Source: Candidatus Peribacteraceae bacterium (lineage in GTDB: Bacteria > Patescibacteriota > Gracilibacteria > Peribacterales > Peribacteraceae). From it: a stretch of DNA of 64,000 nt. Shown in pieces: positions 2-40,429 of this stretch. The stretch lies in assembly GCA_030750465.1 (NCBI GenBank), contig JASMHZ010000002.1, positions 1,948 to 65,947 of the forward strand, read 5' to 3'. Positions within the stretch are counted from its first letter, which is position 1; every line of letters starts with the position of its first letter. Made by a program: the position numbers and the translations under genes. Below the pieces are notes generated by a model, which searched no databases, was not told the DNA's origin, and saw nothing but the letters and a program-made list of their open reading frames with translations.

Positions 2-109
2 GGTATTTGTTATGTACTAGGGCAAATAAAAGAACAAGATATTAGTTCAGCAAATCTGCTTGAAGTATTCTCGAATAGACATTCGAGCTCACTTGAACGA
101 ATGAAATAA
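2..109 (+). CDS. 3' end of an unidentified CDS entering from the left edge (partial)
   Basis: The frame is open from the window start to TAA at 107-109, 1 nt before the next ATG. Only ~35 codons are visible and no motif is recognised. Confidence 0.25.
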   Translation, partial: GICYVLGQIKEQDISSANLLEVFSNRHSSSLERMK

Positions 110-5282: not shown

Positions 5283-5351
5283 AGATGGTGAACAAATAAA
5301 GAACCTGCACTCTAGCCATATGTGTGGTTTTGACGTAGAATAGGAAGAGAT

Positions 5352-5372
5352 CGGGGCTAGCTTAAGTTGGCT
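5352..5372 (+). repeat. decayed echo of the tRNA-Pro 5' end
   Basis: CGGGGCTAGCTTAAGTTGGCT compared with the tRNA 5' end CGGGGCGTAGCTCAGTTGGCT, located 107 nt upstream of the gene. Confidence 0.6.
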
Positions 5373-5458
5373 GTCGAGCGCACGCGAAGCGGGAGCGAGC
5401 AAATTAATAACCAGTACTCTAGCCATTCATCTGTTCTTTCATCATAATAGAAACACGT
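5373..5458 (+). promoter_or_regulatory. conserved tRNA promoter/leader cassette (tRNA-Pro copy)
   Basis: 86 nt, about three quarters identical to 19236-19322 on the minus strand. Contains TAGCCA-N17-CATAAT (-10 at 5443-5448), ending 10 nt before tRNA position +1. Confidence 0.55.
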
Positions 5459-5535
5459 CGGGGCGTAGCTCAGTTGGCTAGAGTACCTGCTTTGGGAGCA
5501 GGGGGTCGCTGGTTCGAGTCCAGTCGCCCCGACCA
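5459..5535 (+). tRNA. tRNA-Pro (anticodon TGG), CCA encoded
   Basis: Manual cloverleaf: acceptor stem CGGGGCG/CGCCCCG, anticodon stem CCTGC/GCAGG, loop TTTGGGA, T-loop TTCGAGT. Confidence 0.93.
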
Positions 5536-19040: not shown

Positions 19041-19158
19041 AGGTCGAACATTCTATGTTTTTTGAGTTGGCCTGCCAACCGTAGCCAGGAGGTCCTGACT
19101 GAAAAGTCAACCTCCGCTCGCTGCGGCGAGGCTACGGTTGACAACCTCCTGCGGAGGT

Positions 19159-19235
19159 TGGTGGAGCTGGAGGGACTCGAACCCTCGACCTTCTGATTGC
19201 GAACCAGACGCTCTAGCCAGCTGAGCTACAGCCCC
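19159..19235 (-). tRNA. tRNA-Ala (anticodon CGC), CCA encoded
   Basis: Acceptor stem GGGGCTG/CAGCTCC with the G3:U70 Ala identity pair, and anticodon loop TTCGCAA. Confidence 0.93.
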
Positions 19236-19322
19236 AAGTGTTTCTATTATGATAGATGATCAGAATAATGGCTAGAGCGCAGACTTATTAAATGGCTCGC
19301 TCCCGCTTCGCGGGCGCTCGAC
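19236..19322 (-). promoter_or_regulatory. conserved tRNA promoter/leader cassette (tRNA-Ala copy)
   Basis: 87 nt homologous to 5373-5458. On the minus strand CATAAT lies at 19246-19251 and TAGCCA lies 17 nt upstream of it. Confidence 0.55.
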
Positions 19323-19363
19323 AGCCAGCTGACCTGCCTGCCGGCAGGCAGGGCTACAGCCCC
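19323..19363 (-). repeat. echo of the tRNA-Ala 5' end, split by the 20-bp palindrome
   Basis: AGCCAGCTGA[CCTGCCTGCCGGCAGGCAGG]GCTACAGCCCC compared with the uninterrupted AGCCAGCTGAGCTACAGCCCC at 19215-19235. Confidence 0.65.
19333..19352. repeat. 20-bp perfect palindrome CCTGCCTGCCGGCAGGCAGG, copy 1
   Basis: Perfect dyad. The same 20-mer occurs at 23598-23617, and at 40410-40429 with one mismatch. Confidence 0.85.
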
Positions 19364-19425: not shown

Positions 19426-19445
19426 GTGGCTCGGTAGTTCAGTTG
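19426..19445 (+). repeat. decayed echo of the tRNA-Phe 5' end
   Basis: GTGGCTCGGTAGTTCAGTTG compared with the tRNA region GTGGCCCGGTAGCTCAGTTG, 97 nt downstream. It is preceded by TATAAT at 19414-19419. Confidence 0.55.
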
Positions 19446-19524
19446 CCTAGCCGAGGCCTGCCGAGGCGTAATATAATAAGCACGCTCGTTCTAATTCACA
19501 TCATCGACGTTGTAAAACCCATGT

Positions 19525-19600
19525 GGCCCGGTAGCTCAGTTGGTAGAGCACTCGCTTGAAGAGCGAGGTGTCGTCAGTTCGATCCTGACCTGGGCCACCA
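19525..19600 (+). tRNA. tRNA-Phe (anticodon GAA), CCA encoded
   Basis: Acceptor stem GGCCCGG/CTGGGCC, anticodon stem CTCGC/GCGAG, loop TTGAAGA. Confidence 0.93.
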
Positions 19601-21173: not shown

Positions 21174-21526
21174 TAGTTATTCTTCTTAGAAGTTTTCACA
21201 ATTGCGGTTAGCAGTTTTATTAACTCATTCACTTTTATCAATAATTCTTTAACTTCCGATTTTTTGCTTGATCCAACTACGTTGATAAGTTGAAGCCAAT
21301 ATCTGGTTTCTCTCGCCTCCTTTAATGCAATATGCATTTTATGAGCAAAATCTTTTTTGCTTTCTGCATATTGTGCTTCCTGAATATTTGCTCCAATACT
21401 GGTCCCAGATCTAAGTAATTGTTTGCTGATAACAAAAGCCTTTTTATTATTCAGATGACCACAGAATTCTATTATCAAAACGGAGAATTCAAATGATTTT
21501 ACCTCTGCTGGTCCATTTTCTTGCAT
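21173..21526 (-). CDS. four-helix-bundle protein (23S rRNA intervening-sequence protein family)
   Basis: The family core QLLRSGTSIGANIQEAQYAESKKDFAHKMHIALKEARETRYWLQLI, and a length of 117 aa. Confidence 0.85.
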   Translation of the reverse strand: MQENGPAEVKSFEFSVLIIEFCGHLNNKKAFVISKQLLRSGTSIGANIQEAQYAESKKDFAHKMHIALKEARETRYWLQLINVVGSSKKSEVKELLIKVNELIKLLTAIVKTSKKNN

Positions 21527-23585: not shown

Positions 23586-23624
23586 GTATGTACAATGCCT
23601 GCCTGCCGGCAGGCAGGTACATAC
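23586..23624. repeat. 20-bp palindrome copy 2 inside an extended hairpin (possible dnaK terminator)
   Basis: GTATGTAC-AAT-G-CCTGCCTGCCGGCAGGCAGG-TACATAC, 6 nt after the dnaK stop. No T-tract follows. Confidence 0.6.
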
Positions 23625-30667: not shown

Positions 30668-30680
30668 GGGCCAGTAGCTC
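30668..30680 (+). repeat. exact 13-nt echo of the tRNA-Ile 5' end
   Basis: GGGCCAGTAGCTC is identical to 30756-30768, 88 nt upstream of the gene. Confidence 0.75.
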
Positions 30681-30755
30681 CCACCTTCGCTCTTCGAGCT
30701 TCGGCGGGCTGGAAGTGGAAGCATAAGAGGCTCACAATCTGTATCATTGCAATAC

Positions 30756-30832
30756 GGGCCAGTAGCTCAGTTGGTTAGAGCACCGGACTTATAAACCGGC
30801 GGTCGGTGGTTCAAATCCACCCTGGCCCACCA
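30756..30832 (+). tRNA. tRNA-Ile (anticodon TAT), CCA encoded
   Basis: Acceptor stem GGGCCAG/CTGGCCC, anticodon loop CTTATAA, T-loop TTCAAAT. There is an A31-A39 mismatch at the base of the anticodon stem. Confidence 0.8.
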
Positions 30833-36422: not shown

Positions 36423-36500
36423 TGGTGGGCGATACAGGGGTCGAACCTGTGACCTTCTGGGTGTAAACCAGACGCTCTAGACCAACTGAGCTAATCGCCC
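36423..36500 (-). tRNA. tRNA-Val (anticodon TAC), CCA encoded
   Basis: Acceptor stem GGGCGAT/ATCGCCC, anticodon stem TCTGG/CCAGA, loop TTTACAC. Confidence 0.93.
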
Positions 36501-40409: not shown

Positions 40410-40429
40410 CCTGCCTGCCGGTAGGCAGG
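40410..40429. repeat. 20-bp palindrome copy 3 (one mismatch), within a larger ATTAATG-flanked inverted repeat (~40386-40470)
   Basis: CCTGCCTGCCGGTAGGCAGG. The flanks are attaatgcaccctcccc and gggcgggatgccattaat. Confidence 0.75.

Follow-up and report, generated by a model that had tools for sequence, protein, structure and literature searches.

Hairpin-associated copies of tRNA gene 5′ ends upstream of tRNA genes in a Candidatus Peribacteraceae bacterium: candidate scars of small insertions at tRNA gene starts

Introduction

Why should a tRNA gene be preceded by a second, same-sense copy of its own beginning? The question is raised by a stretch of 64,000 nucleotides from a Candidatus Peribacteraceae bacterium (GenBank assembly GCA_030750465.1, contig JASMHZ010000002.1, positions 1,948 to 65,947 of the forward strand), called the window below, in which four of the five tRNA genes recognized by ARAGORN and Rfam are preceded by such a copy, referred to here as an echo. 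Few genes are as conserved or as heavily transcribed as those for tRNAs, and insertions within such genes are, to our knowledge, normally known only from integrases at the 3′ end. On the best reading of the data presented here, the upstream units are scars left by small cassettes whose target is the start of tRNA genes, and they mirror at the 5′ end the tRNA-linked repeats of Escherichia coli. About one third of the tRNA genes are affected in this genome and its relatives, the echo comprising the first 7–22 bases of the tRNA.

Results

Frequency of echoes

Positions 1–26 of all 42 tRNAs in the genome that holds the window (G000; a 1.0-Mb assembly of 64 contigs, 42% GC) were aligned to the 250 nt upstream of the respective gene, with 200 shuffles for each tRNA and with reverse-complement, downstream and non-cognate controls. 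Glu-CUC on contig C34 was left out of the echo count, its apparent copy being only the neighbouring tRNA. An echo that scored above all 200 shuffles of its own upstream region was found at 15 of the 42 tRNAs, with one 7-nt case in addition, and most copies lie 75–130 nt upstream of the tRNA. Echoes are thus in excess over shuffled upstream regions. The reverse-complement and downstream controls were at background level. A first-pass annotation of the window had described the echoes as direct and not complementary. In a later census of short echoes, exact 7-mers of tRNA positions 1–7 were sought at 90 "echo-less" tRNAs from three genomes, and 6 further loci were found against 0.5 expected.

The comparison was extended to G005 and G007, which belong to the same genus as G000, to G018 from another genus and to G155 from another family. 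Echoes precede approximately 11 of 47 tRNAs in G007 and approximately 19 of 45 in G018, and they are present in G155 as well.

Filled and empty alleles

In G007, the promoter flanks of Val-GAC and Thr-CGU are followed directly by the tRNA, whereas in G000 the same flanks are followed by the echo, a GC-rich hairpin, a spacer and only then the tRNA. Pro-UGG is empty in G005 and Lys-CUU is empty in G003, and the sequence upstream of the tRNA at these sites is homologous to the sequence upstream of the echo. Since the flanks of the empty sites match the sequence before the echo, the ancestral promoter lies upstream of the echo, and what happened inside the tRNA gene was an insertion plus duplication at the DNA level. 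It had been proposed that a promoter-bearing segment inserted at the D-arm or D-loop and displaced the original 5′ part; the core of this proposal is borne out by the four empty-site alleles, while "promoter-bearing" is suggested by motifs only.

The set of affected tRNAs differs among G000, G005, G007 and G018, and more than 10 loci are filled in one genome and empty in a very close relative, through either gain or loss. At Tyr, the promoter flanks of G000 and G005 are 100% identical, the echoes measure 18 and 7 nt, respectively, and the hairpins and spacers are different. For Pro-UGG, G000 and the more distant G007 have the filled state and the closer G005 has the empty one, a distribution that implies precise loss by recombination between the repeats. 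At Ala-UGC of G000, an insert of hairpin family A (the families are defined in Table 1) is nested between an older family-C unit, common with G007, and the tRNA, with the newest insert nearest the tRNA; this nesting is the expected outcome if new events strike the live gene. Tandem arrays were found at Lys-UUU (two units), at Pro-CGG (three units), at a Pro tRNA of G059 (three units) and at Phe of G155 (three units), which shows that unequal exchange occurs.

Anatomy of the leaders

The leaders have a common layout, in which the old promoter is followed by the echo (positions 1 to ~16–22), a hairpin, an AT-rich spacer of ~30–55 nt and the complete tRNA. All echoes are either broken by a GC-rich hairpin or stop at one, the hairpin belonging to one of at least five repeat families, with the interruption falling after position 7, 10, 11 or 12 and the termination after position 18 or 21. 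The base at "position 13" of family-A leaders changes together with the hairpin's 3′ end (C..G or T..A), and the exact repeat therefore comprises positions 1–12. In many leaders the tRNA's own D-loop variant resumes after the hairpin (CAGGG, CAGTG, CAGCTGGTT, AGTGGT, AGTTGGTTAGA, TAGCTCAG), which indicates that the duplicated segment extends from position 1 to ~16–22 with the hairpin inside it. The first-pass annotation had missed the hairpin joined to each echo, the homology between the Pro and Ala leaders and this resumption of many echoes past the hairpin.

Compensatory changes were observed in family-A stems and double changes in 5 of 7 pairs of family B, in which the hairpin alone is structurally conserved. 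In 6 of 8 family-A leaders, the hairpin ends at a distance of 41–47 nt from the tRNA start. The last ~30 nt of the spacer resemble the upstream regions of echo-less tRNAs in having a TTCTTTC-like motif and a weak -10-like hexamer with 9–11 nt to +1.

No terminator-like site and no T-tract was found at any leader hairpin, and an A-rich sequence follows the family-B hairpins; the hairpin as an intrinsic terminator or attenuator was rejected on the lack of T-tracts. Scans of the leaders with the Rfam 15 covariance models, at the gathering threshold and at E≤1, returned only tRNAs and overlapping noise, and the leader as a known structured RNA family was rejected as well. Decayed full tRNA copies were also rejected, the leader scoring 12.5 when aligned to the remainder of its own tRNA against 12.3 for other tRNAs, with Met and Gln of G155 as exceptions. 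A full-length tRNA carrying the hairpin, as an intermediate state, was not found in 121 genomes.

In family C, a tract from about -47 to +21 is duplicated in tandem, giving a repeat of ~68 nt that includes ~47 nt of promoter. The earlier description of a duplicated tRNA 5′ part has to be amended for the Pro and Ala leaders of the window, which belong to this family and in which the repeat does not start at +1. In Gln and Met of G155, 23–30 nt of promoter are repeated. The "anti-D" box of family C, the reverse complement of positions 17–28, overlaps the -35-like TAGCCA. Anti-D-arm pairing is significant in family C only (7 of 7) and was rejected as a general leader feature; it is native to the promoter region, because it is already present in the empty Pro site of G005. 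The Pro and Ala tRNA genes of the genus have a -35-like region xxCTCTAGCCA that is the exact reverse complement of their own positions 17–28, and this promoter/D-arm inverted repeat covaries with positions 25–26 (Pro-UGG, Pro-CGG, Ala-CGC, Ala-UGC, Ala-GGC). It is found at 5307–5318, 5414–5425 and 19269–19279 of the window, and also on contigs C5 and C11 and in G007.

Separability of hairpin and duplication

The same 22-nt Val-CAC echo is present in G000 and G005, and in G005 a 38-nt family-A hairpin lies exactly between T12 and C13, absent from G000 and without a target duplication. The hairpins are separate repeat elements that can enter an echo already in place. Only 7 nt, resembling a promoter end, separate this echo from the tRNA in G005. 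The echo keeps the ancestral GGACGAT, which is the form of the tRNA in G007 and G018, while the live tRNA has GGACAGC in G000 or GGGCAGC in G005; the echo is thus a fossil that does not track its tRNA. The acceptor stem of tRNA-Val(CAC) itself differs among close relatives (locus L146 in G005, C11:26068 in G000, G007 and G018), by either unusually fast stem change or gene replacement.

Family-A hairpins were located with an nhmmer profile, which replaced a structural regular expression found to be too strict. Of the ~32 family-A-like hairpins in G000, all 8 in tRNA leaders have a flanking repeat, as against almost none of the 24 elsewhere. The duplication as the hairpin's intrinsic target-site duplication was rejected on this ground; the long target duplication once offered as an alternative explanation stands insofar as a duplication accompanies the insertion. 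Entry of hairpins is precise and without target duplication, and a hot spot for independent entry is GTAG(C)(T) at tRNA positions 7–12. Some family-A hairpins are located inside open reading frame (ORF)-like low-complexity sequence and are flanked by short repeats of that sequence (C13:6470–6580, C55:27910–27940, C8:21147–21177, C33:38976–39006).

In orthologous leaders the spacer is ~85–90% identical and the inner stem-loop may differ (Ile, Gly-GCC), while unrelated leaders may carry an identical hairpin, as do Ala-UGC and Gly-GCC (47 nt) or Thr-CGU of G000 and Thr-UGU of G003 (46/46). A spacer copied from elsewhere was rejected: outside family C, it has no match in the rest of the genome, in the promoter or in the 3′ flank. 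The register-anchored similarity between promoter and spacer of cognate pairs was marginal (p = 0.04).

Breadth of the hairpin families

A search for the family-B pattern in 151 genomes of the family gave ~17 genuine loci in 14 genera, all of them at tRNA starts (Lys, Pro, Thr, Ala, Asn, Met, Trp) and none elsewhere. At each locus, the tRNA's own positions 1–17/18 abut CCTAG, and the distance from GCTCGG to the tRNA is a constant 32–36 nt. Leaders of Val, Trp, Ile-GAU and Pro from four genera have an identical 16-mer (CAGTTTCCAACTTCGC) after the family-A hairpin.

Within the class, 103 of 301 genomes and 76 of 188 genera contain the family-A core, ~10 times the reversed-pattern control. In G000, family-A hairpins are enriched near tRNAs, 9 of 32 being no more than 200 nt away, with an expectation of 0.6. 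Other families of the class often have the hairpin of family A directly on the 3′ CCA end (loci L100, L101, L109 and L113), as it does at ~9–11 of the 33 tRNAs of G155. At locus L112 of G237, which belongs to another family, an inverted pair of family-A hairpins is flanked by a 14-nt direct repeat of the tRNA-Asn 3′ end; this is a 3′-end counterpart of the 5′ echoes.

Conservation of the echo

In orthologous leaders of G000 and G005 or G007, the echo differs at 5 of 113 sites, or at 1 of 102 without the badly aligned Ala-CGC pair. In the same leaders, 16.7% of the spacer, 17.7% of the hairpin and ~7% of the well-aligned promoter flanks are different (Fisher p about 5e-7). Two readings fit this slow change, namely homogenisation by unequal exchange and selection, which might act on the part that is transcribed first from the old promoter. 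No leader segment complementary to the acceptor 5′ strand and no conserved long-range pairing within the leader was found. A leader-tRNA RNA switch is argued against by these two results, by the echo not following the tRNA and by the turnover of the cassettes.

Candidate enzymes

G000 has one IS200/IS605 TnpA gene (C5:24677–25114), ~240 nt downstream of the tRNA-Pro(CGG) that has the three-unit array at its start. Three proteins score above the cut-off of NCBIfam NF047646, the repetitive extragenic palindrome (REP)-associated tyrosine transposase (RAYT), with 80.3, 97.4 and 100.1 bits. REP/RAYT membership of family A was rejected, because no family-A hairpins flank the RAYT genes. All 6 genomes checked contain Y1 genes. 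The inserts of 30–110 nt contain no ORF. An autonomous insertion sequence with matching ends was not found, the IS200-like element on C5 having different ends, and no systematic search for one was made.

Features of the window

The coordinates are given in Table 1. The first-pass annotation had described an exact 13-mer 88 nt upstream of tRNA-Ile; the location holds, as the echo begins 88 nt before the tRNA at 30756, and the copy is 12 nt long, since the 13th match (C, 30680) is the base of the hairpin. The 21-nt Pro echo with a few changes and the 21-nt Ala echo interrupted by a palindrome are present as described. The Phe echo, previously given as 20 nt at 19426–19445 with 2 changes, is delimited here as 18 nt with 2 changes, and Val is indeed the only tRNA of the window without an echo.

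In G007, the Ile locus has a different hairpin within flanks that are otherwise 87–95% identical. The Ile spacer ends in GTATCAT followed by 8 nt, and the sequence that precedes the Ile echo has the same ending. tRNA-Ile with a UAU anticodon is uncommon in bacteria; across the family, this tRNA (30756–30832, loci L002–L012) is 92–99% identical. In the Pro echo, GCTCAG has become GCTTAAG and one G has been lost, and there is no difference from G007 in the 21 nt. The stem of the Pro family-C hairpin varies with compensation in G007. The homologue of the Pro ancestral promoter region in G005 directly abuts the tRNA and is the empty site referred to above. The GTACTCTAGCCA box at 5414–5425 is the reverse complement of tRNA positions 17–28.

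The perfect 20-bp palindrome CCTGCCTGCCGGCAGGCAGG is dispersed, with at least 10 copies in the genome, and occurs in the window at 19333–19352, 23598–23617 and 40410–40429. It is often the centre of a larger GTATGTACAATG...TACATAC palindrome, and it entered two tRNA echoes after C11, those of Ala-CGC and Pro-CGG, being carried in the latter by the first unit of the array on contig C5. On the minus strand, a nested hairpin block (19075–19140) starts directly after the CCA end of tRNA-Ala; it consists of ACCTCC-GCA-GGAGGT and then CAACC-GTAG-CC ... GG-CTAC-GGTTG-GCAGGCC with a family-A tail.

Table 1. Positions of leader and tRNA features in the window, definitions of the hairpin families (with the point at which each enters the echo) and positions of RAYT-class genes in G000
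Feature	Position	Strand	Remarks
Ancestral promoter region of tRNA-Pro(UGG): GCACTCTAGCCA box, promoter-like TAGCCA-17-TAGAAT (5313–5341)	5307–5351	+	Promoter scan
Echo of tRNA-Pro(UGG) positions 1–21, degenerate	5352–5372	+	21 nt: one deletion, one insertion, one substitution
Family-C hairpin GTCGAGCGCACGCGAAGCGGGAGCGAGC, Pro leader	5373–5400	+	Common to Ala-CGC and Pro-CGG leaders
AT-rich stretch, second GTACTCTAGCCA box (5414–5425), promoter-like TAGCCA-17-CATAAT (5420–5448)	5401–5458	+	Tandem copy of ancestral promoter region
Intact tRNA-Pro(UGG)	5459–5535	+	ARAGORN, Rfam
Intact tRNA-Ala(CGC), 5′ end at 19235	19159–19235	-	ARAGORN, Rfam
Family-C spacer of tRNA-Ala: CGCTCTAGCCA box (19269–19279), promoter-like TAGCCA-17-CATAAT (19274 to 19246)	19236–19294	-	Homologous to Pro leader
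Family-C hairpin GTCGAGCGCCCGCGAAGCGGGAGCGAGC, Ala leader	19295–19322	-	
Echo of tRNA-Ala(CGC): positions 1–11 (19353–19363) and 12–21 (19323–19332)	19323–19363	-	Split by palindrome
20-bp palindrome CCTGCCTGCCGGCAGGCAGG inside Ala echo	19333–19352	-	
Echo of tRNA-Phe positions 1–18, 2 mismatches	19428–19445	+	Preceding GT common too
Family-B cassette, Phe: CCTAGCC hairpin GGCGT (19446–19469), AT-rich stretch, GCTCG motif, promoter-like tail	19446–19524	+	
Intact tRNA-Phe(GAA)	19525–19600	+	ARAGORN, Rfam
Echo of tRNA-Ile(UAU) positions 1–12, GGGCCAGTAGCT	30668–30679	+	Exact 12/12; conserved in G007
Family-A GC-rich hairpin, Ile leader: CCCACC TTC GCTC TTC GAGC TTC GGCGGG..	30680–30713	+	nhmmer match C22:32627–32660
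Spacer S, 42 nt, Ile leader	30714–30755	+	Opens with degenerate D-loop continuation AAGTGG..TAAGAGGC
Intact tRNA-Ile(UAU)	30756–30832	+	ARAGORN; Rfam RF00005, 74 bits
tRNA-Val(UAC), no echo, internal negative example	36423–36500	-	Echo score 10, below shuffle mean
tDNA sense strand positions 1–25, GTAGCTCAG			
Family A: YCCNCC-TTC-stem-loop-stem-TWC-GGNGGR-CAGG	After position 12, sometimes 7 or 22		Inverted in Tyr; Ile in window
Family B: CCTAGSC-hairpin-GSCGT, AT-rich stretch, GCTCGG, then 32–36 nt	After G18		Phe in window; Lys
Family C: GTCGAG-hairpin-CGAGC	After position 21		Pro, Ala in window
20-bp palindrome family CCTGCCTGCCGGCAGGCAGG	After C11		Ala in window; Pro-CGG on C5
Family E (G155): TCCGCCGYGGCGGAC	After GTAG, positions 7–10		Ala, Val, Phe, His
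RAYT-class gene	C11:39034–39468		Flanked by own GTAG-type hairpins or inverted repeats
RAYT-class gene	C8:8861–9295		Flanked by own GTAG-type hairpins or inverted repeats
RAYT-class gene	C4 near 21174–21416		Flanked by own GTAG-type hairpins or inverted repeats

Discussion

Our data are best explained, with a probability of roughly 0.58, by recurrent small insertion-plus-duplication events at tRNA gene starts that involve several hairpin repeat families, the echoes being the displaced original 5′ ends. The hairpin-plus-spacer units, most clearly those of family B, would be small, presumably mobile, non-coding cassettes that target the first ~20 bp of tRNA genes, with survivors seen only where the insertion regenerates a full tRNA gene. 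Such cassettes could be gained, precisely lost via recombination between the two copies, nested and tandemly amplified, and hairpins may also move alone into existing echoes. After an insertion, the tRNA would be made either from the old promoter, by read-through plus RNase P, or from a putative promoter in the spacer.

The right edge of the duplication lies in the D-loop (+16 to +22), and the left edge, outside family C, lies at +1 or a few bases upstream. The 2–5 nt upstream of +1 are often common to echo and tRNA, for which a common promoter motif could also account. Repeats of 7 to 22 nt with a common left edge are not explained by a transposase with a fixed stagger. As a guess, the edges may mark where transcription starts and how far downstream RNA polymerase extends at these strong promoters, and routes to such edges might be targeted integration, or fork stalling and template switching. 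A bolder version of this idea, which we regard as quite doubtful, would be a class of gene-free cassettes that target the tRNA transcription start complex, duplicate the ~20 bp that are transcribed first, between about the start site and the downstream border of the polymerase, and bring a replacement promoter, and/or an echo that functions as a decoy 5′ strand or conserved initial transcript and tunes tRNA expression or maturation in bacteria of the candidate phyla radiation (CPR).

Several observations weigh against insertion by cassettes. Hairpin copies away from tRNAs carry no duplication, and family C as well as Gln and Met of G155 are plain tandem duplications that include the promoter. 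Within one genome, the family-A spacers are unrelated though the hairpins can be identical, which is odd for a copy-and-paste element. The echoes change ~4–15 times slower than the flanks, as would not be expected of a pure "dead scar". In terms of enzymes, no transposase or integrase is linked to the cassettes, and among 20 Y1 loci of 6 genomes a family-A match within ~700 nt was found at 4 only, in each case a weak one that was not adjacent. Four of 6 genomes (G000, G004, G012 and G018) have no reverse transcriptase, and a retro-mechanism was rejected for this reason. The phenomenon is therefore not uniform, with plain tandem duplications in some cases and apparent cassette insertions in others.

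The most serious rival, although an unlikely one, is that no dedicated element is involved and that the units are small spontaneous tandem duplications across the tRNA start, extending from a few to ~50 nt upstream to the D-loop and originating by slippage, template switching or unequal exchange at heavily transcribed promoters. REP-like hairpins would later have colonised the non-essential upstream copy, separated the repeats and stabilised the duplication. This is how family C and the G155 Gln and Met leaders look, with 23–47 nt of duplicated promoter, and Val-CAC of G005, with 7 nt between echo and tRNA and a hairpin that entered later, fits the same scheme. The weak in-register similarity of cognate promoters and spacers, the insertion of hairpins elsewhere without duplication and the unequal exchange proven by the tandem arrays point in the same direction. 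However, most spacers of families A and B are unlike the local promoter even where the echo is perfect, family B is one conserved architecture of ~80 nt that occurs at more than 10 different tRNAs in 14 genera and never elsewhere, and the 16-mer after the family-A hairpin is 100% conserved across genera and different tRNAs.

It is less probable, and on balance improbable, that the leader is a selected functional unit, whether an initially transcribed region, a decoy or alternative 5′ strand for folding or RNase P processing, or a protein-binding site. The low divergence of the echo (1–5 differences in ~100–113 sites against ~17% in spacers and ~7% in promoter flanks) would be accounted for, as would the identity of the degenerate Pro echo in G000 and G007, the hairpin structure kept through compensatory changes and the constant spacing between hairpin and tRNA. 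Yet conservation is also explicable by homogenisation through unequal exchange, leaders come and go at more than 10 loci when very close relatives are compared, and two of every three tRNAs have none. The Val-CAC echo does not track changes of its tRNA; there is no complementarity to the acceptor strand, the hairpin being the only conserved structure; anti-D complementarity is confined to family C as a native promoter feature; and echo length, hairpin family and hairpin orientation vary.

Classical attachment (att) scars, in which larger integrative elements at the 5′ part of the tRNA were later deleted and left short remnants, are very improbable. Integrases do produce a duplication of a tRNA segment around the insert (PMC9897764), but known integrases duplicate the 3′ part, and the inserts described here are tightly clustered at ~60–110 nt, have a conserved architecture, contain no integrase remnants and place the same cassette family at many different tRNAs. 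Chance matches or assembly artefacts, for which nothing speaks except the shortness of some echoes (12–13 nt), have a negligible probability, being refuted by the shuffle, reverse-complement, downstream and non-cognate controls and by the recurrence of echoes in independent assemblies of many genera.

In this reduced genome, a third of the tRNA genes carry a tiny 5′-end insertion that rebuilds the gene and turns over between close relatives. If small cassettes do insert at tRNA gene starts, this would be a new target and a new mode of spread for small non-coding repeats. It would account for 5′ tRNA fragments and odd tRNA leaders in CPR genomes, with a bearing on annotation and promoter prediction, would provide natural markers of strain-level history, and would raise the question of whether the extent of a DNA duplication is set by the transcription complex or the nascent transcript. 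That the echo is conserved, contrary to expectation, leaves room for a part in the regulation of tRNA expression, in organisms about whose gene regulation hardly anything is known. The first-pass annotation knew of no description of a 5′ echo, and full-text literature searches likewise found no published description of 5′ tRNA duplications with hairpin cassettes.

Known systems resemble the units in part. Partial tRNA duplications at attL and attR are said to go back to Reiter (1989) and Williams (2002). Integrases of phages, integrative and conjugative elements and islands insert in tRNA genes and create a direct repeat of the interrupted segment (PMC9897764). As in these cases, a direct repeat of a tRNA segment flanks the insert, one intact gene is kept and a fragment is left. 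Unlike the kb-sized, integrase-encoding elements that duplicate the 3′ part, the present units repeat positions 1–22 around an insert of 30–110 nt that has no coding capacity and no linked recombinase.

The hairpins are similar to REP/RAYT systems, Rickettsia palindromic elements (RPE), Correia elements, enterobacterial repetitive intergenic consensus (ERIC) sequences and MITEs (miniature transposable elements with inverted repeats) in being dispersed, GC-rich imperfect palindromes of several families, with compensatory stems and precise insertion without target duplication, and the family-A hairpins within ORF-like sequence are reminiscent of the in-frame palindromic elements of Rickettsia. 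RAYT genes are present in the genome, but family-A hairpins do not flank them. As for the REP feature of a GTAG at the 5′ foot of the hairpin, the family-E hairpin of G155 directly follows the tRNA's own GTAG; in family A, CTAC (GTAG on the other strand) is in an internal loop and not at the foot, and families B and C are without GTAG. In contrast to REPs, the hairpins are strongly tied to both ends of tRNA genes, they are accompanied at the starts by a 7–22-nt duplication and a promoter-like spacer, and family B has no copies away from tRNAs. In contrast to MITEs, which have terminal inverted repeats and a fixed-length target-site duplication, only the internal hairpin is conserved in family B, and the direct repeats have lengths of 7–22 nt (~68 nt in family C) and do not occur at non-tRNA sites.

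TRE5-A of Dictyostelium uses the tRNA transcription complex as a landmark. Ty3 inserts at Pol III start sites (PMC6673722). The insertion sites described here are similarly set relative to the tRNA gene start, and the transcription complex may play a corresponding role; unlike these eukaryotic retrotransposons, which insert upstream of the gene, the cassettes would insert inside it, with no reverse transcriptase and with duplication of the tRNA 5′ segment.

The closest likeness is to the tRNA-linked repeats (TLRs) of E. coli, which were reportedly described by Egan and Landy in 1978 and by Rudd in 1999. TLRs contain an exact copy of 18–19 bp from the 3′ end of the preceding tRNA or rRNA gene and mostly have no known function (PMC8144298, Stenum et al. 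2021). Both are short non-coding units beside a gene that copy a gene end (12–22 nt in the echoes) and that occur in tandem, here twice or three times. While TLRs lie downstream and repeat the 3′ end, the units of this genome lie upstream, between promoter and gene, and repeat the 5′ end; they come attached to repeats that form GC-rich hairpins, are found at a third of the tRNA genes and turn over within one genus.

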